From Candidatus Limnocylindrales bacterium (GTDB taxonomy: Bacteria > Chloroflexota > Limnocylindria > Limnocylindrales > CSP1-4): 64,000 nt of DNA. The notes under the pieces were generated by a model. That model did no database searches. It was not told the DNA's origin and saw nothing but the letters and a program-made list of their open reading frames with translations. Where the stretch lies: positions 2,847 through 66,846 of the forward strand of contig JBEKPL010000001.1 in NCBI GenBank assembly GCA_049520815.1. Reading direction: 5' to 3'. Shown one piece after another: positions 9,365 through 61,421 of this stretch; position 1 is the first letter of the stretch; each line of letters opens with the position of its first letter. Position numbers and translations under genes: made by a program.

Positions 9365-10957
9365 ATGCATCTCGTGCTTCCGGGACCCGCGCCGGGTCGA
9401 TCCCACGCAGCGCGCGTCGCAGTCCTGAGCCTGGCCGCCCTGGCCGTGGCCACGATCGCGATCGCCCTGCTGCGGGCGGCGACCCACGTCACCTACCCCG
9501 CCCCGGTGTACCTGCTGGCCGTGCTCGCCGTCGGCATGCGGTATGGAACGGTGCCGGCGATGCTGACTTCCGTCGGCGCCTTCCTCCTGTACGACTTCCT
9601 GTTCGTCGAGCCTCTCTACGCCCTGACCATCCGCAACCCGGACGAGTGGCTGAACCTGCTCCTGCTCCTTGCGGTGGCCGCGGTCATCGGCCGCCTGGTC
9701 GCGCTCCAGACCGAGCGGGCCAGCGAGGCCGCAGACCGGGCCCGCGAGGCCGAGGCATTGCATGCCGTCACCGAGGTCCTGGCCGCCACCCGGACGGTAG
9801 ACGAGGCAGCGCCTGCGGTGGTCTCCCGGCTGGAGCGGCTGACGGCGATGGATCGGGTCTGGTTCAGCCTTGGCGCCACGCCGACGGACGAGCGCGTGCT
9901 CGCCGACACGGACCCGAATGCCCCGCTGCCGGTTCCCGGCTGGCAGGTGGTGCTGCAGCGCGGGCCGGATGGGCAGACGCGGTGGGCCCGCACCCACGTG
10001 GGCCTCGGCGCCGCCTGGCGCGCCCCTCGGGCCGCTCTTCACCGGGTCCGCGTCGAGGTCGCCGGCGAGAACCTGGGATCGATCTGGGCCCTCCGTGCCC
10101 GCGGCGAGCGCGAACCGGACCGGGCCGAGACGCGCGTGCTATCCGCCGCCGCCGACCAGCTGGGCCAGGCCGTGGTCCGAGACCGGCTCGCCCGCGAGGC
10201 GACCACCGCGGAGATCGCACGGGAGAGCGAAGCCCTCAAGACCGCCCTCCTGGACTCCGTTTCCCACGACCTGCGCACGCCCCTGGCCACGATCCGGGCT
10301 GCCGCCGGCAGCATGCTCGATCCACAGGTCGCCTGGTCGGCTGAGGAGCAGCGCGATGCCTTCCGGGCCATCGATTCGGAGGCCGAACGAATGGGCCGGC
10401 TGGTCCGCAACCTCCTCGACCTCAGCCGGATCGAAGGCGGAGCCCTCCAGCCGGAGCTCGAGCCGTGCGATCTCGACGACCTGGTGCCCCAGGTGGCCAG
10501 GCGCGCCGCCGGCGCCACGACCAAGCAGGTGCGCGTGGAGCTGCCCGACTCGCTGCCGCCGGTGCTGGCCGATGAGTTGTACCTGAACCAGGTACTGGCC
10601 AACCTGCTGGAGAACGCCATTCGCCACGGCGGCGACACGATCCGCGTGCGGGGCGCCCATCGGCCGGACGGGCTGGTCGAGATCAGCGTCGAGGACGACG
10701 GACCGGGCGTGCCCGCTTCCGCCCTGCCGCACCTGTTCGAGAAGTTCTACCAGGCCGGGCCCCCCGGCGAGAGCAAGAGACGCGGCATGGGCATCGGCAT
10801 GACCGTGGTCGAGGGCCTGACGCGGGCCATGCGCGGCGAGGTCTCAGCGAGCCGCAGCGAATTCGGCGGCTTGCGTGTGGACGTGCGGCTGCACCCCGCG
10901 CTCGTGCCGGACGACGCCGCCGGGCCGACGACGGCGACCGAGAAGGCCACGCCATGA
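9365..10957 (+). CDS. KdpD C-terminal-type sensor histidine kinase (DUF4118 TM domain + GAF-like + HisKA + HATPase); lacks the KdpD N-terminal/Usp domains
   Basis: The LLYDFLFVEPLY segment marks the KdpD TM domain. The H-box is SHDLRTPLATI. The GMGIGMTVVEGL segment marks the HATPase G2 box. The first ATG after the divergent permease is at 9365 (MHLVLPG…). The stop overlaps the kdpE start (ATGA). Confidence 0.8.
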   Translation: MHLVLPGPAPGRSHAARVAVLSLAALAVATIAIALLRAATHVTYPAPVYLLAVLAVGMRYGTVPAMLTSVGAFLLYDFLFVEPLYALTIRNPDEWLNLLLLLAVAAVIGRLVALQTERASEAADRAREAEALHAVTEVLAATRTVDEAAPAVVSRLERLTAMDRVWFSLGATPTDERVLADTDPNAPLPVPGWQVVLQRGPDGQTRWARTHVGLGAAWRAPRAALHRVRVEVAGENLGSIWALRARGEREPDRAETRVLSAAADQLGQAVVRDRLAREATTAEIARESEALKTALLDSVSHDLRTPLATIRAAAGSMLDPQVAWSAEEQRDAFRAIDSEAERMGRLVRNLLDLSRIEGGALQPELEPCDLDDLVPQVARRAAGATTKQVRVELPDSLPPVLADELYLNQVLANLLENAIRHGGDTIRVRGAHRPDGLVEISVEDDGPGVPASALPHLFEKFYQAGPPGESKRRGMGIGMTVVEGLTRAMRGEVSASRSEFGGLRVDVRLHPALVPDDAAGPTTATEKATP

Positions 10958-11923: not shown

Positions 11924-12193
11924 ATGGAACGCCACGCCGCCCGCGAGAATGCGGCTCTCGACCCGGAGGAGACCCGGCGCCGGCTGACCTCGGAGGTCGC
12001 CGAGGTCGAGAGCGCCATGGCTCTCGTGGCGTCGGGCTCGGCCACGCGCATCACCCTTGCCGGCCTGAGGTTCGGCGGGCAGCTAGCGGAGCGCTTCTCC
12101 GCGATCGCCCGGTTGAAGGGCCTGCGCCTCGAACCGCTGCCCTGGCCCGACGACTCGGGCTGCGACCTGGTCGTGCGGAGGAGCGATGAATAG
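11924..12193 (+). CDS. hypothetical protein (89 aa)
   Basis: The ORF has GC-typical codon use. Its 3' end overlaps the start of the following receiver gene by 8 nt. No family was recognised. Confidence 0.35.
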   Translation: MERHAARENAALDPEETRRRLTSEVAEVESAMALVASGSATRITLAGLRFGGQLAERFSAIARLKGLRLEPLPWPDDSGCDLVVRRSDE

Positions 12194-48712: not shown

Positions 48713-48970
48713 GACGGCACCCCCTCAAGCACAGCGGCTGCAACCGCAGGTCCAGCGTGCCAATGCACCTACGTCTCCTTCGTCGTGGAGTCCGACGCCG
48801 CGAACTGCGGCCGGATCGTTTCAGCCCAAACTGTCTCAGTTCGGACTGATGCAACTGAGTGCCCATAGGCCTTTGTTCGCGGGCCGAACGGCTCTCAGCG
48901 CCGGGGCCGAGCTCGGAGGCCCGGGCATTCTGTTGACGGTCGGCGGCCGCAGAGACGTATCATCGAATTC

Positions 48971-49867
48971 GTGTCCGTCGATTCGTCGATACAGTCAGAC
49001 CTGCCTATCTCCGAGCTGTTCGCGCAGCGGCGTCCGCTGCGCTCGCTCGAGTTCTTCCCGCCCAAGGACGACGCGGGCGTCGAGGCGTTGCGCCAGACCG
49101 CCGCGGCGCTGCAGCGGATCGGACCGGATTTCGTGTCGGTGACCTACGGCGCAGGCGGCAGCACCCAGGGACGCACCGCCCAGGTGTCCTCCCTTCTCAA
49201 GCACGAATTCGGCTTCACAGTCATGCCGCATCTGACTGCGGTCAATCACACGCGCGCGGAGGTAGCGGCCGTCGCACAGGCGCACTACGCACGGGGAATC
49301 CGCAACATCATGGCCCTGCGGGGCGACCTGCCCAACGGGCTGCCCGCGGCGACTGCGTTCAAGGACGACCTGCGCTTTGGCAGCGATATCGTTGCCCTGC
49401 TGAAGGAGCTGCACCCCGATCTCTGCCTGGGTGTGGCCGGCTACCCGGAGAAACACCCCGAGGCACCCTCATTCGAAGCCGATCTCGCGAACCTGAAGCG
49501 CAAGGTCGACGCCGGGGCCTCCTTCGTCACCACCCAACTCTTCTTCGACAACGAGGCCTACTACCGCTTCGTGGATCGATCCCGCACAGCAGGGATCAGC
49601 GTGCCCATAGTCCCGGGCATCATGCCGGTGCTCTCGCTCAAACAAGTCACAAGGATCACCGGCAGATGCGGCGCCTCGCTGCCGGACCGGCTGATCAGGC
49701 GCATCGAGGCCGCCGGAGACCAGCCCGAGGCCGTCGAAGCCCTGGGCATCGATTGGGCGCTCGATCAAATCCGCGACCTCCTGGGCCGTGGAGCACCGGG
49801 CTACCACCTCTACATCCTGAACCGAGCCCACAGCGCGCTCGCCCTGGCCGCCGGGCTCGCGGCGTGA
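48971..49867 (+). CDS. metF: 5,10-methylenetetrahydrofolate reductase
   Basis: The sequence EFFPPKDD…SVTYGAGGST…MPHLTAV…VAGYPEKHPEA is collinear with MetF over 298 aa. Confidence 0.85.
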   Translation: MSVDSSIQSDLPISELFAQRRPLRSLEFFPPKDDAGVEALRQTAAALQRIGPDFVSVTYGAGGSTQGRTAQVSSLLKHEFGFTVMPHLTAVNHTRAEVAAVAQAHYARGIRNIMALRGDLPNGLPAATAFKDDLRFGSDIVALLKELHPDLCLGVAGYPEKHPEAPSFEADLANLKRKVDAGASFVTTQLFFDNEAYYRFVDRSRTAGISVPIVPGIMPVLSLKQVTRITGRCGASLPDRLIRRIEAAGDQPEAVEALGIDWALDQIRDLLGRGAPGYHLYILNRAHSALALAAGLAA

Positions 49868-49900
49868 GGTGAGCGCCGGGAGACTCGGGGAGATGCGACG

Positions 49901-50842
49901 GTGACGGTTCTCCAGATGTGTTTCCTGGCGACGGGTCTGACGGTGGACCTCGCCCTGGCGGCGTTGCCCTTGTGGGCGTGGCTCAGGCAAGGGCGCGATC
50001 CTCACTTCACTGATGACGACTCGGTGCTCATGCCATCGCCGCCGCCGGACTTCACTCCGGCACTCGCCTCGGTGGTGCTGCAGGGCAGCGCATCGCGGCG
50101 AACGGTCTCGGCCGGGCTGATGGACCTGGTCAGCCACGACCTGATCGCCTTTCGCGCCGAGCCGTCTGCCGTTGGCCATCGAGCCGGCCTCGAATTGACC
50201 ACCGATCAGCCCCGCGACGTCAACCTGCCCGCGCCCGAAGCGGCACTGTACAAGTCGATTCGCGCGGCCATAGGGGAGTCGGGCCACATCGAGGCGCTCC
50301 TCCTGGGAGGCCTGAACGGCGCCTTCGCCGACTTCACGCGATCTCTGGAAGAGATAGCACTGCGGCGTGGTTGGGTGCACGAGAAGCCCGGTTCGGTCAT
50401 TCGGAAGTGGCGGATCATTGCCGGGGCAGAGGTCGTGGGTGGACTGCTCCTGGCCGGGTGGATCTCCACGGTATTCGCGGAATCGAGCGAGTCAATCGCT
50501 CTCGATATCGCGATCGTCGGCCTCGGAACTGTGATCGCGGGCGCAATCACCTACTTCGTCTCTGGTTCGATGCCGGCGCGGACGAAGGACGGCGCGATGC
50601 TGGCGGCGATACTCAACGCCTATCGCCGGACACTCGAGGCGACCATCGCGCAGGCGAAGTCGCTGGAGCAGGTGGTCGTCATGAGGCCGCTGCCCTGGGT
50701 CGGAACTCCAACCGAGGAGATCGCCTGGGCCGTCGCCTTCAACCTGGACCGGCAGATCGACAGCCTTCTGTCGCAGTCTCTGGAGGTCTCCGAGACGGGC
50801 GGCTGGCCGATGGGCATCCGCGACTGGTTCTCGGTCCTCTAG
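49901..50842 (+). CDS. membrane protein resembling the C-terminal half of DUF2207-family proteins
   Basis: The sequence LRQGRDPHF…FTPALASVVLQG…LMDLVSHDLIAF matches the DUF2207 mid-region, and two TM helices follow. No N-terminal ectodomain is present. Confidence 0.45.
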   Translation: MTVLQMCFLATGLTVDLALAALPLWAWLRQGRDPHFTDDDSVLMPSPPPDFTPALASVVLQGSASRRTVSAGLMDLVSHDLIAFRAEPSAVGHRAGLELTTDQPRDVNLPAPEAALYKSIRAAIGESGHIEALLLGGLNGAFADFTRSLEEIALRRGWVHEKPGSVIRKWRIIAGAEVVGGLLLAGWISTVFAESSESIALDIAIVGLGTVIAGAITYFVSGSMPARTKDGAMLAAILNAYRRTLEATIAQAKSLEQVVVMRPLPWVGTPTEEIAWAVAFNLDRQIDSLLSQSLEVSETGGWPMGIRDWFSVL

Positions 50843-51008
50843 AGCGCGAACTCCTGGAGAGTCGAGAGCGGCGCTCGCCGTCACTACATCGAGTCGCGCT
50901 CAGCCTCGCCACGTCCGGGCCACTCTTGAGCTCGTCTCGCTGAACCCGGTGGCGCCTACGGAACCTACAAACGCGCGAGGCTGACTGTCGCTGCTCTCGT
51001 GAATCGGA

Positions 51009-51061
51009 AGGGTTTGGAGCGGGAGACGGGTCTCGAGCCCGCGACATTCAGCTTGGAAGGC
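51009..51061. repeat. direct repeat copy of the tRNA-Gly 3' half (putative distal att site)
   Basis: These 53 nt match the reverse complement of tRNA-Gly(59387..59462) nt 30-76 plus 6 nt of flank, with 1 mismatch. Confidence 0.6.
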
Positions 51062-51347
51062 CTCGGTGCCCATGCGCTGTGGCACCCCTCGTGGGGCCCG
51101 ACCATTTCGTGTCCAGTTATCGTGTCGCGGGGAATTGCCACGATGGCCCGATTTCGCGGGTTAGCTGGCGCGACACGCCGTCTCGACCCATTGCGAGCGA
51201 AGGCACGAGCACGTCTCCAGTGCTCCAACCGTCGACGAGTCCGCCCGGCGGCCGCGAGCGTGCCAATCGGGCTTATGCCATCCAAGTTCGAGAAGTCGGC
51301 AGCCGCGCGGTTCTCTTTTGGGCGTTCACCCTGACCTGCCCCGCCCC

Positions 51348-52475
51348 TCAGGGCAGCGGCCGCCAGGCCTTTCCGAGCAGGAGGGAAAGGGACGCAAGCA
51401 GCCCGCCCAGGCCCACGAAGGCGAAGCTGACCTCAGTCGCCTGGTGCTTCACGATCAGGTTCAGGGGCAGGTTCTGGAAGACGCTGTTCAGCTCGGCCGC
51501 GGTCGAGGCGGGATGGTAGGTCGCCCCGGTCATCGCCGCGATCTGCTTGAGCGTGGCTTCATCGATGCCGCGATTGAAGTTGCCTCCACCGCCGCCGCCG
51601 CCAAACCCGCCGCCGCCAAACCCGCCGCCGCCAAACCCGCCGCCACCAAACCCGCCGCCGCCAAACCCGCCGCCGCCAAACCCGCTGGCTCCGGGCTCAC
51701 GGCCCTGGAACTGGGGCCGGCAGGTCGGGCTCATCGACCCGCCGTCGGCCGTCCCGAAACCAACCGTGAAGACCCGCACTCCCCTATCCGCGGCCTCCTG
51801 AGCGGCGTCGAGTGGCGGCGTGCCGGTGTTGCTGGCGCCGTCCGTCAGCAGGACCACGATGTCGGGCGCGTAGTCGCCCTTGGGCACGGGCGTTGGGCCC
51901 AAGGCGCCGTCGGGCACGCTCTTCGCGACGGCCGGGTCGACCAAGGAGATGGCGTCGATCGAGGCCAGGATGCCCTCGCCGATGGCGGTCCGCTGCCCCG
52001 TCGCGAGGCTGGCGAGAGCGTTGAGCAGCTGGGCCTGGTCGTTCGTCGGCGCCTGGACGAGCTGGGCGAAGGTGCTGAAGGCCACGATCCCGATCTGCGT
52101 GGACGAGGACTGGCTCTTGATGAAGGCCGATGCCGCGGCTTCGGCGGCCTCGAGGCGACTCGGCGGGATGTCCGAGGAACACATGCTGCCGGAGACGTCG
52201 ATCGTGAGGATGATCGTGGTCTGGTTGGTGGGCACGGCCAGGATGACGACCGGCCGGGCCATCGCGAAGATGAAGCCGCCGCCAGCCGCCACGAGCAGGA
52301 CGAACGGCAGGTGGCGCCGCACTCGGGACGATCCGGGGGCCGCCTCTCGGACGAGCGACAGGCTCGAAAAGCGAACGCCCGACGGCAGCCGGCGTCGCTG
52401 ACTCCAGACGTAGACCGCGACGATGAGCGGCAGAACCAGAAGCAACGCCAGCAAATCCGACCACTGGAAGTCCAT
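51348..52475 (-). CDS. VWA-domain membrane protein (BatB-like) with (GFGGG)n repeat
   Basis: The N-terminal TM helix is followed by a vWA MIDAS motif (DVSGSM). Six GFGGGG repeats are encoded by a DNA tandem repeat at ~51590-51680. Confidence 0.8.
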   Translation of the reverse strand: MDFQWSDLLALLLVLPLIVAVYVWSQRRRLPSGVRFSSLSLVREAAPGSSRVRRHLPFVLLVAAGGGFIFAMARPVVILAVPTNQTTIILTIDVSGSMCSSDIPPSRLEAAEAAASAFIKSQSSSTQIGIVAFSTFAQLVQAPTNDQAQLLNALASLATGQRTAIGEGILASIDAISLVDPAVAKSVPDGALGPTPVPKGDYAPDIVVLLTDGASNTGTPPLDAAQEAADRGVRVFTVGFGTADGGSMSPTCRPQFQGREPGASGFGGGGFGGGGFGGGGFGGGGFGGGGFGGGGGGGNFNRGIDEATLKQIAAMTGATYHPASTAAELNSVFQNLPLNLIVKHQATEVSFAFVGLGGLLASLSLLLGKAWRPLP

Positions 52476-52531
52476 CTATCGCCGCCCTGTCCGGCTCCGT
52501 GAGCCCTTGTGCTCAGTCATGACAAGCAGGC

Positions 52532-53545
52532 TCATGGCACGCGCCCGAGCCATAGCAACGAGGTCAGGACTCCGGCCAGCATGAGCAGCAGGCTCATGGC
52601 GGCGAAGAGCGCCGTGATCTCGGTCAGCTGGGGCCGGAGTACCAGCCCCACGTCGATGTTGTCGTAGATCGAGCGGAGCCCCGCCGCATCGGTGGCGTTG
52701 TAGTACGTCCCGCCCGTGACCTGGGAGATGCCCTGGAGCGTGGCCTCGTCGAGCCGAGTGAAGACCTCGAACCCGTTGAGGTCCAGGGTCGTGCCTGCCG
52801 CGCTGCCGATCCCAACCGTGTAGACCCGGACGCCCCTGTCCGCTGCCGTCTGCGCGGCGGTCTTCGGATCGGGGTTCTCGTTGTTCTCGCCGTCGCTCAG
52901 CAGGACTATCACGGCCGGGGCGTGGGTGCCGGCCGGGACGGGCGTGGGTGTAGGAGTCGGCGACGGCGCGGCCGATGGATTGGTGTAAAAGTCGTTGCCC
53001 GCGTAGCCGGCCACCTGCGCGGCGATGACCTTGAGCGAGGCCGTGATGCCGCTGGCGACAGAAGTCCCCTTCTGCGGCGTGAGGCGGTCGATGGCGTCGT
53101 CGAGGATGGTCAGGTCGTTTGAAGGCGCCTGGACCGAGACGCCCGAATCGCTGAAGGCCACGACGCCGATGCTGATGGTGAGCGGCTGGCGTGCGACGAA
53201 GTCCTTTGCCGCGGTCTTCGCGGCGGCGATCCGGGTCGGCGCCATGTCCTTGGCGCCCATGCTGGCCGAGACGTCGAAGGCCAGGATGACCGTGCCCTCC
53301 TGGCGCGGCAGGCTGACGACCGCCTGCGGACGAGCGATGGCGAGGGCGGTGAATACCAGCCCGAAGAGCATCAACGCGGCGGGGATGCGGCTGCGGAATC
53401 CGCGCCGGCCAGGTCCCACGGCGAGGCCCGAACCGCCGTAGCGCGCCAACCGGCGTCGGCGGCTCCGATCGAGCAGGGCGTAGAGCAGGACCCCGAGCGG
53501 GATCAGCGCCAGCGAGACCAGCATGAAGGGCCAGATGAACGACAT
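52532..53545 (-). CDS. VWA-domain membrane protein (BatA-like)
   Basis: Two N-terminal TM helices are followed by a vWA domain (FDVSASMGAKD) and a C-terminal TM helix. Confidence 0.8.
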   Translation of the reverse strand: MSFIWPFMLVSLALIPLGVLLYALLDRSRRRRLARYGGSGLAVGPGRRGFRSRIPAALMLFGLVFTALAIARPQAVVSLPRQEGTVILAFDVSASMGAKDMAPTRIAAAKTAAKDFVARQPLTISIGVVAFSDSGVSVQAPSNDLTILDDAIDRLTPQKGTSVASGITASLKVIAAQVAGYAGNDFYTNPSAAPSPTPTPTPVPAGTHAPAVIVLLSDGENNENPDPKTAAQTAADRGVRVYTVGIGSAAGTTLDLNGFEVFTRLDEATLQGISQVTGGTYYNATDAAGLRSIYDNIDVGLVLRPQLTEITALFAAMSLLLMLAGVLTSLLWLGRVP

Positions 53546-53548
53546 GGG

Positions 53549-54646
53549 CTACCTCCGCCGGCGGCGCCGCAGCGCGGCCATGCGAACGATGGCTCGAACC
53601 AGGTCGTCTTCGGTGGACAGCGCGAGCGGTTCCACTCCTGCGCTGGTGAAGGTGGCCTTGATCTCAGCCTCTCGTCTGGCGGCCGCCTCGACGAAGCGAC
53701 GCCGGAAGCGTGCGTCGTGCGTGTCGACGTAGATCCGCTCGCCGGTCTCGGCGTCCTCCATGATCAGAGTGCCGACGTCCGGCAGCTCCGCCTCGCGCGG
53801 GTCGGTCAGCCGGACGGCGATCGTCTCGTGCCGGCGGTTCATCAGGCTCAGGGAGCGATCCCAGCCGGGAACGCTGATGAAGTCCGACACTAGGAAGACC
53901 AGCGAACGGCGCTTGATGACGTGATTGGCGGCGTTCAGAAGAGGCTTCAGGTCGGTGAAGGGGGCTCGTTCCAGGCGTGGCTGACGAAGCAGGTCGTCGA
54001 TGAGGCGCAGGACCTGGTCCCGGCCACCGCGCGCTGGGACGGTCCGCTCCAGGGCGCTGTCGTAAAACATCGCCCCGACGCGATTACCGCGCCGGGTCAG
54101 CACCCGCGCCATCGTGGCCACGAAGTCGATCAGGACGGTGCGCTTCAGCCGATCGGTCTCGGCGCTGCCGAAATCCACCGAGGGGCTGAGATCCAGCAGG
54201 AACCAGGCCGTGACCTCGCGATCGTCGGTGTACTCGCGAACGTAGGGCGTGTCCATCCGGGCGGTGACGTTCCAGTCGATGGCCCGCACGTCGTCGCCGA
54301 GCTGGTACTCGCGCAGGTCCACGAGATCGATGCCGTTGCCGCGGAACAGGCTGCGATAGTCGCCCTGCAGAACGCCATCCAGGCGGCGGATCACCTGCCA
54401 GTCCACGCGCTGCAGGATCTTCTCGGCGGCGGAGACGGGCCTCGTCGGGGTCGGGGCCGGGGCGCTGCCCGGGGTCGGGGTCGGGGCGCTGCCCGGGGTC
54501 GGAGCGGGGGCGCTGCCCGGGGTCCGCGCCGCGGGAGAACGACGCCTCGCAGCCGGCGGCGGGAACTGGACGCGCAGGCCCGCGCCAACCGGGTCCGCCT
54601 CGTCGCCGAGGTCCAGTTGAGCGCTCCAGGCCACGCCTTCAGCCAC
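53549..54646 (-). CDS. DUF58-family protein (MoxR-associated) with N-terminal TPGSAP repeats
   Basis: The sequence …DLREYQLGDDVRAIDWNVTAR… is the DUF58 signature. The N-terminus carries APAPTPGSAPTPTPGSAPAPTP repeats. Confidence 0.8.
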   Translation of the reverse strand: MAEGVAWSAQLDLGDEADPVGAGLRVQFPPPAARRRSPAARTPGSAPAPTPGSAPTPTPGSAPAPTPTRPVSAAEKILQRVDWQVIRRLDGVLQGDYRSLFRGNGIDLVDLREYQLGDDVRAIDWNVTARMDTPYVREYTDDREVTAWFLLDLSPSVDFGSAETDRLKRTVLIDFVATMARVLTRRGNRVGAMFYDSALERTVPARGGRDQVLRLIDDLLRQPRLERAPFTDLKPLLNAANHVIKRRSLVFLVSDFISVPGWDRSLSLMNRRHETIAVRLTDPREAELPDVGTLIMEDAETGERIYVDTHDARFRRRFVEAAARREAEIKATFTSAGVEPLALSTEDDLVRAIVRMAALRRRRRR

Positions 54647-55649
54647 GGGCGGGGACCTTGGCGCCGTCTCGCAGCGGCACGACGGGCACCGGGATCTTCT
54701 TGAGCACCGTCGTCAGGACGTCGTCGGCGGTCACGTTGTCAGAGAGCGCCTCGAACGAGAGCACCATCCGGTGGCGCATGACGTCGCGGGCCATGTCGAG
54801 GACGTCCTGGGGCAGGGCGTAGTCGCGGCCACGGACGAAGGCCAGCGCGCGAGCGGTCAGGATCAGGTTGATCGAGGCTCGCGGACTGGCGCCGTAGGTG
54901 ATGTAGTGGGCCAGCTCCGCCATACCGTGCGACGCCGGAGCGCGGGTTGCCGTCGCGAGTCGGACCGCGTACTCCATCAGGCCCGGGTCGACGTACACGC
55001 GATCGGCCTGCGCCTGGAGCTCGAGCAGGCCGGCGGTGGTCAGGACTTCCTGGACTGGATCGAGCTTGCCGGTCATCCGCTCGACGATGACGAATTCCTC
55101 GGTGGCGCTGGGGTAGTCGATCAGGACCTTGAGCATGAAGCGGTCCACCTGCGCCTCCGGCAGGGCGTAGACCCCTTCGGTCTCGATCGGGTTCTGCGTC
55201 GCCATTACCAGGAACGGGTCGGGCACTTTGTGCGTGTCGTGCCCGATGGTGACCTGCCTCTCCTGCATCACCTCCAACAGAGCGCTCTGGACCTTGGCCG
55301 GGGCACGGTTGATCTCGTCGGCGAGCAGCAGGTTGGTGAAGACGGGGCCCAGGGAAGTGTTGAACTCGCCGGTCTTCTGGTTGTAGATGCGCGTCCCGAC
55401 CAGGTCGGCGGGCACGAGGTCCGGCGTGAACTGGATGCGCTTGAACTCGCCGCCGATCGATTCGGCCAGGGTCTTGACGGCCAGCGTCTTGGCCAGCCCC
55501 GGCACGCCTTCAACGAGCAGGTGGCCGCGGGCCAGGAGCGCCACGGCCATCCGCTCCAGGAGGTTGTCCTGGCCGACGATGACCTTCTTGACCTCGTACA
55601 GCACCCGCTCCATCGGCTCCGAAGGAACGGTGGCGGCCTGTGCGTTCAC
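54639..55649 (-). CDS. MoxR-family AAA+ ATPase
   Basis: The Walker A motif is LLVEGVPGLAKT and the Walker B motif is LLADEINRAP. The 336-aa protein overlaps the DUF58 gene. Confidence 0.9.
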   Translation of the reverse strand: MNAQAATVPSEPMERVLYEVKKVIVGQDNLLERMAVALLARGHLLVEGVPGLAKTLAVKTLAESIGGEFKRIQFTPDLVPADLVGTRIYNQKTGEFNTSLGPVFTNLLLADEINRAPAKVQSALLEVMQERQVTIGHDTHKVPDPFLVMATQNPIETEGVYALPEAQVDRFMLKVLIDYPSATEEFVIVERMTGKLDPVQEVLTTAGLLELQAQADRVYVDPGLMEYAVRLATATRAPASHGMAELAHYITYGASPRASINLILTARALAFVRGRDYALPQDVLDMARDVMRHRMVLSFEALSDNVTADDVLTTVLKKIPVPVVPLRDGAKVPARG

Positions 55650-55664
55650 GTGTTGGACCTCCGG

Positions 55665-56588
55665 CTAGTCGGGCGGAAGACCGGCGGCTCCGCCGGCTAC
55701 GTCGATGGGCACCGCGAGACCGATGCCGATGAAGACACCCTGGTTGGTTGGGTTGATGAGCGCCGAAACGATCCCGATCACCTGGCCGTTGCGGTTGACC
55801 AGCGGGCCGCCCGAGTCGCCTGGGTTCACCGCCGCGTCGACCTGGATCAGTCCGGTGAGGAGCGGCCCCCCGTTCGGGAGCTGGAAGGATCGATTGAGAC
55901 CGGAGACGATCCCCGAGCTGATCGAGCCCGACAGACCGAAGGGGCTGCCCAGGACGTAGGCCTCGCTGCCGACCTGGACGCTGCGGGGGCTGCCCAGGAC
56001 GGCCGGTTTCACGCTCGCCGGGATACTCGTCGCGCGAAGGACCGCGATGTCGTTCTGCGCCTCGGCGGAAACGATCGAGGCCGCCGTCGTCGTTCCATCG
56101 GCGAAGGTCACCTTGACGGCGAGCGCGCCGGCGACGACGTGGAAGCAGGTCATGATGTCACCGGCCTCGCTGATGACGACGCCGCTACCGATCGACGCGT
56201 CCTCGGCGGGAATGCCGGCCGGGCTGGCGGTGGCGGCGGGGACGGCGGAGGGCGCCGTCGAGGCCGAGCCGCTCGGGGCCGGCGAACCGTTCGAGACGAT
56301 CGCCTGGATCCTCACGAGCGCCGGCGCCACAGCCTGGTACGCACGCTGGGAGAGAGCTGGTCCCGGGGGTTGCGATGCCAGAGCACTGGCGATGGCGGTG
56401 GTGACGTCCGACCGATCGAGGGGCTTTGGCCCCGGGTTGATCGCGCCGTACACGCTCAGGGCGACGAGGGCGGCGGCGATCCCCAGGGCGAAAGGACCGG
56501 CCCAACGCGTCCGGCGCCTAATCCGGGAGATACGCCTCGACCAGGGCCGGGCTTCGGATGGGAGAGTGGTCTGTGGCGATTGTGTCAT
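55665..56588 (-). CDS. trypsin-like (S1C/HtrA-type) serine peptidase without PDZ domain
   Basis: The catalytic Ser motif is GDSGGPLV. The His region is TCFHVV. An N-terminal TM helix or signal anchor is present. Confidence 0.8.
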   Translation of the reverse strand: MTQSPQTTLPSEARPWSRRISRIRRRTRWAGPFALGIAAALVALSVYGAINPGPKPLDRSDVTTAIASALASQPPGPALSQRAYQAVAPALVRIQAIVSNGSPAPSGSASTAPSAVPAATASPAGIPAEDASIGSGVVISEAGDIMTCFHVVAGALAVKVTFADGTTTAASIVSAEAQNDIAVLRATSIPASVKPAVLGSPRSVQVGSEAYVLGSPFGLSGSISSGIVSGLNRSFQLPNGGPLLTGLIQVDAAVNPGDSGGPLVNRNGQVIGIVSALINPTNQGVFIGIGLAVPIDVAGGAAGLPPD

Positions 56589-56850
56589 GTTGCGGATCGG
56601 GTCCCGATCACTCTTCGGCCCGGCCGACGCGCCCTGAGAGGGCGGGCCTATGTTCGCCGTGGGCAGTTTTGGTCATCATCCTGAAACCCGCATGAAAGCC
56701 TTCGAAATCGACCGATAGAGGCTTCGACCCGATCTTCAACCTATCACGCCGAGCCCCGATGGTTGGCGCACTCCGACTACGAGTTCGCTTTGGACGAGAC
56801 GCTCGGCTCGGCCGGGTCCCCGGTCGCACCGTAGAAGCTGCGTGGTCCGG

Positions 56851-56910
56851 CACGAAATGGGTTTGGATCGGGAGACGGGTCTCGAACCCGTGACATTCAG
56901 CTTGGAAGGC
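56851..56910. repeat. second direct repeat copy of the tRNA-Gly 3' half plus a few nt of upstream flank (att-like)
   Basis: The 52-nt segment 56859-56910 matches the tRNA 3' region with 2 mismatches. Similarity extends 8 nt further left (cacgaaa.ggg). Confidence 0.6.
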
Positions 56911-56976
56911 TTTGGAGCGTAAGCGCAGTAGCCTCCTGAACCGCCCTGGGTTCCGTGGAGACTTTCGTTCTTTGGT

Positions 56977-57858
<882 letters not shown>

Positions 57859-57862
<4 letters not shown>

Positions 57863-58215
57863 TTCGTCGATCGGCGGTCGATCTCCGCCCCGAAGAAAAT
57901 GGCTGCGCTCTTCAGGATCTCGTTTGCTCGGCGAAGCTCGCGGTTCTCACGTTCGAGCTCGACGATCCGGCGACGCTCCTCGGTCGTGAGACCGGCTCTG
58001 ACACCTCTGTCGATCTCGGCCTGGCGGACCCATTGGCGCAGCGACTCGACTCCGATGCCGAGCTGGCGGGCGATCCTGGTGACGGCACCGCCGCGCTCGC
58101 CCCGCTCCTCGATGGTCTCGAAGACCATCCGGACGGCACGGTCCTTCAGTTCGGGCGGGTAGCGGTGGGAAGGCTTGTGGCTGCTGGCGTTGTCTGGCAT
58201 GGCTCCATTCTCCAA
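57859..58215 (-). CDS. IS3-family transposase OrfA (HTH)
   Basis: The sequence PPELKDRAVRMVFE…RIARQLGIGVESLRQWVRQAE is IS3 OrfA-like. The track start is TTG, and an alternative ATG lies at 58200. Confidence 0.8.
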
Positions 58216-58424
58216 GAGATGGAGTCTCCATCAAAGTCAGGGCGGTTCATCCCTCGTGGAGGCCCGAGCGTAGGGTGTCCAGTCATCGTGTCGTCGCGGT
58301 GGTCGTAGTCTTGTCCGTCACGAGTCGTTCCGAGCTCGCTGAGACGGAAGACGTCGCTGCTCCTGGATAGGAAGCCCGATCGGTCGGGTGCGGGACGTGC
58401 GCAAAACAAGAAGGAGGGACCCAC

Positions 58425-59315
58425 ATGAAAGCGATTGTCTGCACCAAGTACGGCCCGCCCAGTGTCCTTCAACTCAGGGAGGTAGACAAGCCCACTCCAA
58501 GGGACAACGAAGTCCTGGTGAAGATCCACGCGACGACGGTGACCTCATCGGACTGCATAGTCCGGGGTTTCAAGTTGCCCATCTCGATGTGGATCCCCGC
58601 GCGAATGGTCCTCGGTCTCAGAAGACCGAGGAAACCCATCCTGGGTGTGGAGTTGGCCGGAGAAGTCGAAGCGATAGGCAAACGCGTTGGACGATTCAGG
58701 GTTGGCGACAGGGTCTTCGCCTTCACCGGGAGGGGTGGCTTTGGCGCCTACGCTGAGTACACGTGTTTGCCCGAAGACGGATTGGTGGCGGTAATGCCGG
58801 CTGGCGTGACCTATGAAGAAGTTGCCGCCACCACTTTCGCCTCTCTGGCGTGGCATTTCCTCAGGAAGGGGAACGTCCAGAAGGGGCACAGGGTTCTTGT
58901 CTATGGAGCTTCTGGGGCGGCGGGCACCTATGCGGTACAGCTAGCCAAGTACATGGGCGCAGAAGTCATCGGGGTCTCCAGCAGTGCCAATCTCGAATTG
59001 GTGAGATCTCTGGGCGCCGACAAGGTAATTGACTACACGAAGGCGGACTTCACGAAGAGTGGAGAGCTCTACGACGTCATCTTCGACGCCGTAGGGAAGA
59101 TCTCGAAGTCAAGCTGCAAGAACGCACTAACCCCGAACGGGACCTACGTCTCAATCAACCAAGGGAACCCCTGGCCGCGTGTCGAGGACTTGGTTCTTCT
59201 CATGGAGCTTGTCAAGACGAAGCAGATCCGATCAGTCATAGACAGACGCTATTCGCTGGAACAGATCCCCGAGGCCCACAGTATGTTGAAGAGGGGCACA
59301 AGAAGGGGAATGTAG
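58425..59315 (+). CDS. MDR-superfamily zinc-type alcohol dehydrogenase-like / NADPH:quinone oxidoreductase
   Basis: The N-terminus is MKAIVCTKYGPPSVLQLREV. The Rossmann motif is YGASGAAGTYAVQLAK. The gene is noticeably AT-richer than its surroundings. A strong RBS AAGGAGGG lies upstream. Confidence 0.8.
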   Translation: MKAIVCTKYGPPSVLQLREVDKPTPRDNEVLVKIHATTVTSSDCIVRGFKLPISMWIPARMVLGLRRPRKPILGVELAGEVEAIGKRVGRFRVGDRVFAFTGRGGFGAYAEYTCLPEDGLVAVMPAGVTYEEVAATTFASLAWHFLRKGNVQKGHRVLVYGASGAAGTYAVQLAKYMGAEVIGVSSSANLELVRSLGADKVIDYTKADFTKSGELYDVIFDAVGKISKSSCKNALTPNGTYVSINQGNPWPRVEDLVLLMELVKTKQIRSVIDRRYSLEQIPEAHSMLKRGTRRGM

Positions 59316-59333
59316 TAGTCACCGTGTCCTGAT

Positions 59334-59372
59334 CTCAGTCGCCGCTCGCTCGGCGCTCGGCGAGGCGCTGAG
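59334..59372 (+). terminator. GC-rich hairpin downstream of the oxidoreductase gene (possible terminator)
   Basis: The inverted repeat is ctcag(t)cgcc…ggcgctgag. No U-tract follows, which is common in high-GC genomes. Confidence 0.25.
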
Positions 59373-59386
59373 CACGAAAGAGGGTT

Positions 59387-59462
59387 TGGAGCGGGAGACG
59401 GGTCTCGAACCCGCGACATTCAGCTTGGAAGGCTGACGCTCTACCGACTGAGCTACTCCCGC
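59387..59462 (-). tRNA. tRNA-Gly (anticodon UCC)
   Basis: The reverse complement is GCGGGAGTAGCTCAGTCGGTAGAGCGTCAGCCTTCCAAGCTGAATGTCGCGGGTTCGAGACCCGTCTCCCGCTCCA, 76 nt. It forms a cloverleaf with anticodon loop CTTCCAA and an encoded CCA. Confidence 0.85.
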
Positions 59463-59558
59463 CGGCAGATCAAGGCACTGCCGCCCGAGGTTAACACGCG
59501 CCCCGCCTCGGCGCCAGCCGGCGATGCCGCCCCGCCCAGGGCGCGCGAGAGCCTGGCG

Positions 59559-61421
59559 TCACCAGACGCCGTCCACCACCATCCGGGCTGCCCAGGCCTC
59601 CACCGCGGGTGGGAACTCGTTGCGGATCTGTGTCCAGCTGTGCACCCAGATCGACTTGACCGCGTCGTACCCGATGTGGTTCTTGGCCAGGATCTTCTCG
59701 AAGTTCTGGGCCTGCGGTCCGAAGAGTTCCTGTGTCGGTGAGGCAACGATGATGAAGAAGGAGCGTGCCTTCTCCTCGTCAGAGAGGCGGGGTACCAGCA
59801 GAGCCGGAGAGACCTTGTCCATCTCGGCCTGACTGTTGCCGTACGGACGGGGGGCGGAGCCCGACCCGATGCCGGCGTAGAAGTAGCCCGAGAACGAGAT
59901 GGAGGTGGAGAACACATCGGGGTGCCGCGAGAGCAGCATTGCGGCGCAGAACCCACCCGCGGACTGGCCCATGATGCCCCGTGCGATCGGGTCCCTGATG
60001 GTATGGAAGGCGAAGTCGACGTATTGCACGACGTCGACCGAAATGAAGGTTTCGAGCCACATCCTCTTGTCGGTCGAGTCCGCGCACTGGCTGTCCGGGA
60101 AGGTGGCACCTTGGGAGTCTATGAACACGACCAGCGCGGCAGGCATAGCCCCGGAATCGATCAGCTGGTCCAATGCCCCGATGACGCCCGTTCCCGAGTT
60201 CCACAATTCCAGCCCGGTGGGGGCCTCGTACAACACGGGATAGAGCCGATCGCCCTCGGGGTCGTACCCAGGTGGGGTGTAGACGTTGATGTCGACGGTG
60301 TCGAGAGTGCCGCCCGTCCAGGGCGCGGGGAAGCGAACCGGCGTCACGTGGCCGTTACCTGTCGGCTTCCAGGCCAGCCACGGCTTGGTGCTGGGGCTGG
60401 CATGCGGAGTTGGGCTCGGCGTAGGTGACGGCGTCGCCAGCTGGCTACTCGGCGTGGCCGAGGACGCAGGCGTCGGCGTTGGCGTTTCGAGCGGGCTCGG
60501 CGTAGTACTCTCGACCGGGATGGAGTAGTCAGGCGCCAGCGCGACGAAGTGACCGCCGTTGAGCATCAATGCGTCCGGCGCGAGGTTGACCATGTCGCCG
60601 AAGGCCGGGACGGTGACGACGAGGAGGCCCAGGATGAGGGCGGCGGCCACCGGCCGGTGCGCTGCCCGTCGGTTTGGCCGCCGGGCCTCCACCATCTCGC
60701 GGACGGAGGCTCCGGTCGCGACCAGCGACGGTCTGATTGCAGCCGCAAGCGTGGCACCTGCCCACGCCGAGATGAAGCTCATCACTACGAGCGTGACCAG
60801 GGTGACGATCCAGCCGATCAGGTCGAAGGACCCCAGGGCGCCGGTCGCGGACAGCGCGTTATGCGTCTCGGCCGTGAACGTCTCACCGAACAGCGCAACC
60901 ATGGCCCAAGTGCCCAGCAACGCCCCGATCGCCGGACGATCGGTCGCGAGCGTAACGGCAACGGCGGCGACGGCGGCGACGATGAGCGCCGCGATCAGTT
61001 GAGCCCGATCCGGATCGAAGCCCATGATCACGAGAGTGCGATCGGTCTCCTCGACCGTGCCTGAGAGCACGGCCACCAGCACCACCAGGATCGCGACGAC
61101 CAGGCCGATGAGGAGCCGCGGGGTCTTCCTCAAGGCACCGACGGGCAGCCGCCCGATCTTGCGCAGGCCGCCTGGTAGCCGGCGAATCCGGCCGAGGCGA
61201 GCGACGCTGGTCTCGTCGGGCTCGCCGATTGTGGCAGCCTCGAGCTGGCCCTCCTGAGCCGGCCGATCGACGAGAGTCCGGTCGGGCTCGCTCTTGGTCG
61301 CAGTCTGTAGTTGGGGCATCGTGCCCAGGCGACCGGCCAGTAGCTCGTCGGCCTCGCTGGCAGCGGCCGTCTCAGGCGGGCCGCTCTGAGGCAGGCCGGC
61401 TTTGCGGCGGAGAGACTTCAT
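59559..61421 (-). CDS. membrane-anchored α/β-hydrolase (putative esterase family, GxSxG = GQSAGG) with Pro/Thr/Ser linker
   Basis: About 6 TM helices sit in the N-terminal half. A PT-rich linker follows. The C-terminal esterase domain reads …IMGQSAGGFCAAMLLSRHPDVF…. The gene is translationally coupled (ATGA) to the upstream MprF-like gene. Confidence 0.7.
   Translation of the reverse strand: MKSLRRKAGLPQSGPPETAAASEADELLAGRLGTMPQLQTATKSEPDRTLVDRPAQEGQLEAATIGEPDETSVARLGRIRRLPGGLRKIGRLPVGALRKTPRLLIGLVVAILVVLVAVLSGTVEETDRTLVIMGFDPDRAQLIAALIVAAVAAVAVTLATDRPAIGALLGTWAMVALFGETFTAETHNALSATGALGSFDLIGWIVTLVTLVVMSFISAWAGATLAAAIRPSLVATGASVREMVEARRPNRRAAHRPVAAALILGLLVVTVPAFGDMVNLAPDALMLNGGHFVALAPDYSIPVESTTPSPLETPTPTPASSATPSSQLATPSPTPSPTPHASPSTKPWLAWKPTGNGHVTPVRFPAPWTGGTLDTVDINVYTPPGYDPEGDRLYPVLYEAPTGLELWNSGTGVIGALDQLIDSGAMPAALVVFIDSQGATFPDSQCADSTDKRMWLETFISVDVVQYVDFAFHTIRDPIARGIMGQSAGGFCAAMLLSRHPDVFSTSISFSGYFYAGIGSGSAPRPYGNSQAEMDKVSPALLVPRLSDEEKARSFFIIVASPTQELFGPQAQNFEKILAKNHIGYDAVKSIWVHSWTQIRNEFPPAVEAWAARMVVDGVW

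Follow-up and report, generated by a model that had tools for sequence, protein, structure and literature searches.

The question raised by this locus is how an intact tRNA gene came to be followed, on the same strand, by two copies of its own 3' half with other genes in between. The window, that is the whole 64,000-nucleotide stretch of DNA analysed here (positions 2,847 to 66,846 of contig JBEKPL010000001.1, Candidatus Limnocylindrales bacterium), contains a single tRNA gene according to ARAGORN, a tRNA-Gly(UCC) at 59387–59462 on the minus strand, which scored 72.7 bits against the Rfam tRNA model. Genes for an esterase-domain protein and an MprF-like lysyltransferase lie upstream of it; a DUF2207_C protein and MTHFR are encoded beyond the most distal partial copy. 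We consider it likely, with a probability of about 0.8, that recurrent site-specific recombination at the anticodon loop of this tRNA gene gave rise to the segment as a tandem array of cassettes that lack an integrase gene. The array would extend from 59462 to approximately 51010, possibly to approximately 48930.

The repeated sequence is a 52-nt block (GCCTTCC...CTCCAAACCC) composed of 47 nt of the tRNA-Gly and 5 nt of flanking DNA. It starts 2 nt on the 5' side of the anticodon loop and runs through the CCA end to the fifth nucleotide beyond. Three occurrences were found, all on the minus strand and in the same orientation: without mismatch in the intact tRNA (59382–59433), with two mismatches in the middle partial copy (56859–56910) and with a single one, a T to C change in the T-loop, in the distal partial copy (51010–51061). 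No match to the block was obtained in 100 dinucleotide-preserving shuffles, and a first-pass annotation of this DNA, which had placed the partial copies at 56851–56910 and 51009–51061, was right to within a few bases. The mismatches of the middle copy include a change in the acceptor stem, and substitutions at such important tRNA positions would fit copies that no longer work as tRNAs. The 5' half of the tRNA is present only once in the window, inside the tRNA-Gly itself. The partial copies are therefore not pseudo-tRNA genes with 5' halves of their own, an alternative that the same annotation had raised.

Similarity between the partial copies is not limited to the tRNA. Each of them carries the same 61-nt sequence, the P-arm, on its inner side; at least 22 nt of this arm, which the tRNA lacks, are common to the middle and distal copies. 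At the distal copy, the arm (CGCGACACGATAACTGGACACGAAATGGTCGGGCCCCACGAGGGGTGCCACAGCGCATGGGCACCGAG; 51062–51131, minus strand, nhmmer E 2.8e-39) is conserved in approximately 95 other loci, at a fixed register of 60–61 nt, and in a distant relative, L010, whose esterase is only about 51–54% identical; some 70 nt are kept there and homology then ends sharply (L-numbers designate the metagenome or metagenome-assembled genome (MAG) loci that were compared). A search of public contigs with an exact 19-mer from the core of the arm recovered 97 metagenome stretches, mostly Chloroflexota/Limnocylindrales-like and from fen, peat and soil; the DNA of the window itself corresponds to contig k141_72831 of ENA assembly ERZ27250059, and the related sequences are Chloroflexota/Limnocylindrales MAGs from fens and soils. 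Of 108 occurrences of the motif, 73 were followed, at a distance of exactly 61 nt, by the start of the 3' part of tRNA-Gly(UCC). From 98 unique modules, a consensus site of approximately 150 bp with sharp edges was defined, consisting of the P-arm (cgACGACACGATAACTGGACACGaaAtGCtCG...CCACGAGG..GC.AC..CGC...), the tRNA part and a motif of about 30 nt, P' (CC..TttCgtGCt.ggcacGacaCtcaGcCtg). The tRNA part of the module is surrounded by an inverted pair, CACGAAATG ... CATTTCGTG. The corresponding profile, used with nhmmer, matches exactly four pieces of the window and nothing further.

The nature of this site was approached from several sides. An E-value search of 50800–59600 found no Rfam family other than tRNA and the ALIL pseudoknot of an IS3 element described below. 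Folding of single module sequences gave z-scores of about 0 on both strands, and RNAalifold applied to the 98 unique modules returned only a residual T-stem of 3 bp, with no covariation. On these grounds, the module seems to behave as a double-stranded protein-binding site rather than as an RNA gene or an attC-like hairpin. Three other candidates were rejected. A coding function of the arm was set aside, as reverse-strand open reading frames (ORFs) over it had no Pfam match and the frame was not kept between the window, with a spacing of 60 nt, and L010, with 61 nt. A transposon-like unit was dismissed, as the cassettes lack terminal inverted repeats and the only convincing pair belongs to the IS3 element. 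A viral origin was discarded too, with two matches in IMG/VR, one spurious and the other to a short contig of 8 kb.

Several variants of the module were seen. The P-arm also occurs next to 3' parts that stem from different tRNAs, namely a Thr-UGU-like one in L069/L090 (1630–1728) and an Arg-UCU-like one in L087 (115–133 region), and the element family seems to have changed tRNA targets while retaining the arm. In L106 (7936–8147), three partial tRNA parts lie 52 nt apart inside one module, and aberrant modules were also observed in L071 (392–513), L076, L093 and L128. Several modules contain a 14–15-nt insertion duplicating the anticodon-loop region (...CCTTCCAAGCCGAAGCCTTCCAGGCTCAATG...), and some copies are truncated. 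These aberrant forms may be the products of imprecise or nested recombination. A further type of junction, in L030 (7253–7339), L085 (2555–2641), L061 (177–261) and L109 (1288–1372), combines the P-arm with only the first 27–29 nt of the tRNA part and runs on into a common CGATCGTTCCATGGTG... sequence; one of these contigs is listed as viral in IMG/VR.

The longer contigs reveal how the modules are organised. An intact tRNA is followed by one to six modules, which often include a P' motif; numbers of up to five or six are reached in L042, L080/L127, L092, L099, L106 and L120. Over all loci, 27 full tRNAs were counted, always in first position, as well as 123 partial copies, and a P-arm could be recognised at 105 of the latter. 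The spacing between modules has a median of 1472 bp (range 496–7679 bp), and most partial tRNA copies in the arrays show 0–2 mismatches. Genes for Fic/DOC, PIN, RCC1/Kelch and DUF4386 proteins are among the varied cargo. The same cassettes occupy different positions in different arrays: the RCC1/Kelch cassette follows the tRNA in L010 and a module in L056, and the Fic cassette is first in L064/L097/L101/L120 and found later in L079/L125. In L123, the order is tRNA-Gly, one 0.9-kb cassette, a module and MTHFR (86% amino acid identity). The content at this tRNA is thus polymorphic among relatives (L003/L049, L123, L047, L100 and L056 versus L010). Together with the conserved arms and an integrase-bearing relative at the same site, this polymorphism supports the tandem site-specific integration proposed in the first-pass annotation. 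Two observations concern the assembly of such regions. In L029, a Logan contig (SRR7028477) of the same strain, the assembly breaks 123 nt past the esterase stop codon, inside the tRNA, which is the effect of a repeated tRNA 3' part on short-read assembly; such arrays are probably under-assembled in MAGs. In L003, the GTDB representative closest to the window, an "NN" lies within the tRNA-Gly directly before the P' motif (approximately 11990–12022), and ARAGORN calls no tRNA there because this artefact of assembly or masking hides the array head.

No site-specific recombinase was found in the window, in agreement with the first-pass annotation, either by phmmer with XerC, lambda Int, L5 Int, phiC31 Int and the family's own integrase as queries against ORFs of at least 80 aa, or in Pfam scans and precomputed Pfam calls. 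In the six-frame ORFs of 1.04 Mb searched by phmmer with the reference recombinases, XerC-like proteins were detected only in L003, L049 and L105, in each case immediately behind the tRNA and P', apart from an unrelated one in L004. The L049 locus comprises, in this order, an esterase homologue, tRNA-Gly, P', a 303-aa integrase gene (1977–2888), cargo, then a P-arm with a tRNA 3' part (9472–9579), forming an integrase-bearing unit of 7.68 kb. Its cargo encodes a Replic_Relax/MarR protein, a Phd/YefM antitoxin and a DUF2199/DUF4265 protein. L003, a close relative with a 74% identical esterase, shows the same integrase arrangement, and both integrase genes occupy the window's own esterase–tRNA-Gly site. 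Homologues 85% and 72% identical again lie directly after tRNA-Gly(UCC) and P', and a 62% identical one in L137 (9888–10972) follows a tRNA-Gly(CCC). Integrase elements whose arms are common to the units of the window are those of L049, L134 and L136. The protein contains Phage_integrase and SAM-like domains and is a "simple" Xer-like tyrosine recombinase. Its nearest solved structure is XerD, and it scores far under the curated cut-offs for XerC, XerD and the integron integrase (43.3 bits against a cut-off of 265 for TIGR02249). It is carried by 1 of approximately 20 distinct array heads, and in L046 a 147-aa integrase fragment directly follows a tRNA 3' part.

A recombinase was also looked for at other places. 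The recurrent ORFs adjacent to the arm proved to be cargo (Fic, PIN, DUF4386, RCC1/Kelch), the "element X" of L010 contained no recombinase, and a recombinase upstream of the tRNA was rejected, the upstream neighbours not being conserved between arrays. A further occurrence of the arm motif GATAACTGGAC lies on the P' side, at the start codon of the integrase gene, in L134 (9990–10012), L136 (9975–10000) and L003 (approximately 12120); the sequence ATGATAACTGG at this place encodes MITG. The motif could be a protein-binding site present in repeated form, or one involved in autoregulation.

The position of the exchange can be narrowed by comparing two types of junctions. In the modules described above, identity to the tRNA starts at GCCTTCCAAG. 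In six loci the situation is the reverse, with a perfect tRNA 5' half and loop ending in CTTCCAAG, followed by a different, mutually conserved sequence of approximately 170 nt (L002, 12058–12250; L006, 21198–21400; L008, 11750–11950; L010, 11590–11790; L011, 11619–11820; L136, 3498–3610). The full tRNA lies 5.4–6.3 kb after this junction in L010 and L136. Between them, these two kinds of junction confine the region of exchange to the 10 nt GCCTTCCAAG, and the crossover would therefore take place within the anticodon loop. The tRNA footprint recognised in the first-pass annotation holds, and the crossover that it had assigned to the 3' end of the gene would be displaced to the anticodon loop. 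Visual comparison and a MAFFT alignment of the reverse complement of the 5'-half junction show blocks in common with the P-arm, and a 10-nt insertion. A mirrored type of site, stacking cargo on the 5' side of the tRNA, is plausible only, since the module profile failed to detect these junctions at E<=1. The window contains no such mirrored 5'-half site.

We propose the following model. The attP-like site of approximately 150 bp would be composed of the 61-nt P-arm, the stretch of tRNA between anticodon loop and CCA end, and the P' motif of about 30 nt. An incoming circle would recombine with the intact tRNA and regenerate it from its own tRNA 3' part. The older units would then be displaced distally, each of them ending in a P-arm and a tRNA 3' part. 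The recombinase would be the compact Xer-like tyrosine integrase of about 303 aa, encoded by a minority of the units directly after the tRNA and P'. The intact tRNA (59387–59462, minus strand; ARAGORN, Rfam), which heads the array as in every related one, would act as attL: its 5' part would be chromosomal, and the part on the 3' side of the anticodon loop would come from the last unit to arrive. The two cassettes recognised in the window, A and B, most likely arrived without an integrase gene, in the manner of cis-mobilisable elements (CIMEs), and would have owed their mobility, in trans or in cis, to a relative that encodes the integrase.

Cassette A is next to the tRNA and measures 1207 bp once an inserted IS3 element is subtracted. 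Its left end is marked by a P'-like motif (AACCCTCTTTCGTGCTCAGC...; 59361–59386, minus strand) directly downstream of the tRNA; the module profile aligns across 59440–59361, and the motif agrees with the consensus of P', nttCCcnTttCgtGCt, over its first half. The only gene (58425–59315, plus strand; Pfam ADH_N and ADH_zinc_N) encodes an MDR-superfamily, quinone-oxidoreductase-like dehydrogenase with an NCBIfam PIG3-like match under the cut-off. This gene is compositionally foreign: its GC content is 0.57 and its GC content at third codon positions (GC3) 0.72, compared with a GC3 of 0.79–0.92 in neighbouring genes. The MDR cassette is also present in L047 (89% amino acid identity), preceded by a module and not by a tRNA. 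The P-arm of cassette A is split. Its 5' part (GCGACGACACGATGACTGGACACCCTACGCTCGGGCCTCCACGAGGGA; 58250–58297, minus strand, nhmmer E 3.6e-8, profile positions 13–62) is cut off from the middle module (56859–56936, minus strand, nhmmer E 1.2e-26), which is made of the remaining 26 nt of the arm (56911–56936) and the partial tRNA copy, and forms the junction of cassettes A and B.

Between these two pieces lies an insertion sequence (IS) of 1313 bp (56937–58249, minus strand), with all the features of the IS3 family: an HTH_Tnp_1 orfA (57859–58215, minus strand), an orfB with a DDE catalytic domain (HTH_21/rve, 56977–57729, minus strand), an ALIL frameshift pseudoknot (57788–57904, Rfam, E 3.7e-18), terminal inverted repeats of 27 nt (TGAACCGCCC..., with TG...CA ends) and a 3-bp target duplication, GGA, at 56934–56936 and 58250–58252. 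The arm is interrupted after ...GCGACGACACGATGACTGGACACCCTACGCTCGGGCCTCCACGAGGGA on the far side and resumes with GGAGGCTACTGCGC... on the near side. Excising the IS in silico gives back a canonical P-arm of exactly 61 nt. The IS3 is a later insertion into the P-arm of cassette A and not part of its cargo; the first-pass annotation, which had listed both genes as content of this island, was correct for the GC-poorer MDR oxidoreductase only. This insertion would probably have inactivated the internal att site; as a consequence, cassettes A and B would now be fused and immobile as separate units. Members of the IS3 family normally have a -1 frame arrangement. In this copy, orfA and the rve ORF are in one frame (56977–58215) with two stop codons between them, and the -1 frame is open for 321 codons without a Pfam match; this copy may carry an indel and be defective.

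Cassette B covers 5849 bp, the second-largest spacing in the data set. It starts with a P' motif (AACCCATTTCGTGCCGGACCACGC...; 56826–56858, minus strand) that agrees with the P' consensus and that the profile alignment reaches as far as 56846. As described in the first-pass annotation, the cargo is a five-gene operon (51348–56588), all on the minus strand and identified with Pfam and NCBIfam: an HtrA-like trypsin protease (55665–56588), a MoxR AAA+ ATPase (54639–55649), a DUF58 protein (53549–54646), a VWA protein (52532–53545) and a BatA-N/VWA protein (51348–52475). The BatA-VWA gene contains, close to its 3' end (51567–51707), seven 15-nt tandem units (GCCGCCAAACCCGCC), each of which would be translated from the gene strand as Gly-Gly-Phe-Gly-Gly; three 24-nt tandem units are found at 54446–54534 in the 5' part of the DUF58 gene. 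The GC3 of the operon is 0.85–0.91, similar to that of the host. In L100, the end of the BatA gene (97% amino acid identity) is followed by the same module as in the window. In none of 23 related GTDB loci does the operon occur on the downstream side of the esterase.

The distal module does not appear to be the end of the array. The distal tRNA copy (51010–51061, minus strand) is followed by a partial P'-like sequence (50972–51009, minus strand) reading CGACAGTCAGCCT, in which ...GCAGCGACAGTCAGCCTCG corresponds to GCACGACACTCAGCCTG of the consensus; the profile alignment extends here to profile position 164, and the sequence was compared with the P' of L134/L136. Because of this partial P', the array probably goes on past 51009 and is not limited to the two islands first described. 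A third, terminal unit is tentatively proposed at 48929–50842 (plus strand), containing the genes of the DUF2207_C protein (49901–50842, plus strand) and MTHFR (48971–49867, plus strand), from comparison with L044 and L123. This proposal is based on L044 (13–1329), where the MTHFR segment forms a complete 1222-bp cassette between tRNA 3' parts, with 91% nucleotide identity to window positions 49885–48929. The module profile found no module beyond MTHFR in the window, and the distal module of this unit may have been lost here. The presence of MTHFR, apparently a housekeeping gene, in a cassette array is odd.

A number of points weigh against the integration of small, integrase-less cassettes as we propose it. 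The exact 19-mer search inflates the apparent conservation of the arm motif, and the counts given above include many contigs that are redundant samples of the same populations. The integrase lacks the arm-binding domain of the lambda type (the Pfam SAM-like domain begins at residue 14), and yet conservation extends over an arm of 61 nt; accessory proteins may be involved, or additional sites of the core type, for example the CACGAAATG/CATTTCGTG pair or GATAACTGGAC. The search for an integrase in the genome of the window covers the 64-kb window only. Of the 23 esterase-anchored relatives, none shares the content of the window downstream of the esterase, where synteny is lost in all of them. A strictly empty tRNA-Gly site of the kind that the first-pass annotation had suggested looking for, an attB with the same two flanks, was not found, every related locus being occupied or rearranged. 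No excised circle was observed. The shuffling of cassettes could also come from homologous recombination between the module repeats of 110–150 bp. Cassette B is host-like in composition, its sole near relatives are L027 (100% amino acid identity) and L100 (97%), and its mobility would be read from its boundaries alone.

The strongest competing explanation holds that two or three full-size elements (phage, integrative and conjugative element (ICE) or integrative plasmid) inserted in tandem and lost their integrase genes by deletion in situ, leaving inert relics. Elements of that kind do exist in relatives with identical arms, as illustrated by the 7.68-kb unit of L049, and the integrase fragment of L046 indicates that decay in situ happens. 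The one or two mismatches of the partial copies in the window, the IS insertion and the degenerate CACGAAATG box of the cassette A arm, which reads CACCCTACG, also go in this direction. We nevertheless regard this explanation as unlikely. Both arms are preserved in over 100 cassettes, spaced at a median of 1.5 kb, and almost none of these has any integrase remnant; decay would therefore require a precise deletion between P' and cargo, many times over. Most partial tRNA copies in the arrays have 0–2 mismatches even though they are non-functional. In addition, integrase-less cassettes are located upstream of cassettes that are first elsewhere, which means that integrase-less units were added at the head or that units moved. 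The first-pass annotation had left the choice between decayed or immobilised islands and mobilisation in trans. The units of the window resemble typical members of a small-cassette family rather than two decayed large islands, and mobilisation in trans (or in cis) is the most likely of these options.

It is somewhat less probable still that the content of the arrays results mainly from RecA-dependent homologous recombination between modules of 110–150 bp, site-specific recombination being limited to rare founding events. The modules are long, near-identical direct repeats, and odd products such as the triple tRNA parts of L106, the 14–15-nt duplications and the truncated copies could be explained in this way. 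Homologous recombination cannot, however, bring new and unrelated cargo to the head of the array; the junction registers are exact, most copies having 61 nt, and no array starts with anything but the full tRNA. Some of the shuffling is probably due to homologous recombination between modules all the same. Finally, local duplication or unequal crossing-over, pseudo-tRNA genes, or a structured RNA or attC-like hairpin would account for the high conservation of the module and for the inverted pair around its tRNA part, but are very improbable given that ARAGORN calls the intact gene only, that no extra tRNA 5' half, Rfam match or conserved fold was found, that the arm is not tRNA-derived and is also attached to Thr-UGU-like and Arg-UCU-like tRNA 3' parts, and that an integrase gene adjoins the same arms in relatives.

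Site-specific integration of small cassettes can be compared with several known systems. Among the features of tRNA-integrative elements, an intact tRNA at one boundary and a direct repeat of part of it at the other are present in the window; an integrase gene beside the att site is absent there and present in the relatives L049, L134 and L136, and relatives are polymorphic in content at the same site with no strictly empty site seen. A sublocation scheme attributed to Williams (2002) reportedly includes classical tRNA-targeting integrases with a crossover in the anticodon loop. As in those systems, identity begins in the anticodon loop and is kept up to the 3' end, the tRNA is restored, and the anticodon stem would provide inverted core sites. 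The classical elements differ in normally carrying their own integrase gene, which the units of the window lack. The arm-binding domain of a classical lambda-type integrase would explain the conserved arms, and the present integrase does not have it.

The definition of CIMEs and tandem accretion goes back to Streptococcus thermophilus and its ICESt1-related elements (Pavlovic et al. 2004, cited in PMC3146451). The units seen here resemble CIMEs in lying between att sites related to those of an integrase-bearing element, with a P-arm and P' in common with L049/L134/L136, and in forming tandems at the target site of that element without recombination or transfer genes. Mobilisation by the integrase of a related element would also be favoured by the presence of the same cassettes at different array positions. 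The differences are that the target is a tRNA anticodon loop instead of the 3' end of fda, that the units are much smaller (median of approximately 1.5 kb) and far more numerous per array, that array heads without an integrase gene are more frequent than those with one by roughly 20:1, and that no conjugation module was seen here.

In Dehalococcoides, 15 ssrA islands without an integration module were read as CIME-like (McMurdie et al. 2011, PMC3146451); the islands of that system are large, carry rdhA and depend on CcrB-like serine recombinases and a 20-bp repeat in the T-loop of the tmRNA (PMC3146451). The two systems belong to the same phylum, Chloroflexota, and in both of them tandem islands lie downstream of one single-copy tRNA-like gene and terminate in a directly repeated copy of its 3' end with adjoining conserved nucleotides. 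The present one differs by its Xer-like tyrosine recombinase, its repeat of 47–52 nt starting in the anticodon loop, its 61-nt arm and its cassettes of 1–5 genes. The tycheposons of Prochlorococcus carry cargo, integrases of the tRNA-targeting tyrosine recombinase type and replication modules, with 1–2 elements per genome (Hackl et al., bioRxiv 10.1101/2020.12.28.424599). There, as here, neighbouring elements are parted only by a partial tRNA, new arrivals push the older ones inward, and degenerate remnants and scattered partial tRNAs are found. Most units of the present family, in contrast, have no mobility gene and still have a conserved site of approximately 150 bp. A deep-branching tyrosine recombinase and a replication module are the hallmarks of tycheposons; the L049 element has a gene with a Replic_Relax domain.

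The resemblance to integrons, in particular to sedentary chromosomal ones, is one of scale. Small, mostly single-gene cassettes are arranged in arrays and each ends in a recombination site; insertion takes place at one array end beside a fixed site, presumably through a "simple" Xer-like tyrosine recombinase acting in trans; and the cargo is rich in toxin-type genes (Fic, PIN). Whereas the attC sites of integrons form hairpins from imperfect palindromes, the 98 modules show no conserved hairpin. The integrase, at 43.3 bits against 265, is not of the IntI type, the fixed site is a tRNA gene and not attI, the integrase gene is usually missing from the array and the orientation of the cargo is mixed. 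In its logic, the system would thus match CIME/accretion arrays, the Dehalococcoides ssrA islands and tycheposons; its scale is like that of integrons, whose defining IntI-type integrase and attC hairpins it lacks.

The window taken alone is an ordinary instance, and its interest lies in the family that it reveals. This family of mostly integrase-less cassettes at tRNA-Gly is widespread and apparently undescribed: the limited body of literature that was searched contained no account of it in Limnocylindria, nor of such tRNA-anchored cassette arrays. A bolder proposal, which we put forward tentatively and rate at somewhat less than even odds, is that uncultured Limnocylindria-like Chloroflexota possess a tRNA-anchored gene-capture system comparable in scale to integrons, which would have arisen independently of them. 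Hundreds of different cassettes of 1–5 genes, devoid of mobility genes and each provided with the conserved attP-like module of approximately 150 bp, would be excised as circles and inserted by an Xer-like integrase acting in trans at the anticodon loop of tRNA-Gly(UCC), with variants at other tRNAs, and the arrays would grow on the 3' side of the tRNA and, via the mirrored site, on its 5' side.

Islands stacked at tRNA genes are common and are usually read as decayed large elements. The comparative data point instead to a standing pool of very small integrase-less cassettes, each with a long conserved recombination site, which stack at one tRNA in an abundant and uncultured group of soil and peat bacteria. 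In practical terms, the 61-nt arm marks the boundaries of the cassettes in these MAGs and explains why assemblies break at this tRNA. Should mobilisation in trans be the rule, the approximately 150-bp module, the tRNA-Gly and the 303-aa integrase would constitute a defined pair of substrate and enzyme, and integrons would no longer be the only known way in which a simple Xer-like recombinase captures genes in modular form.

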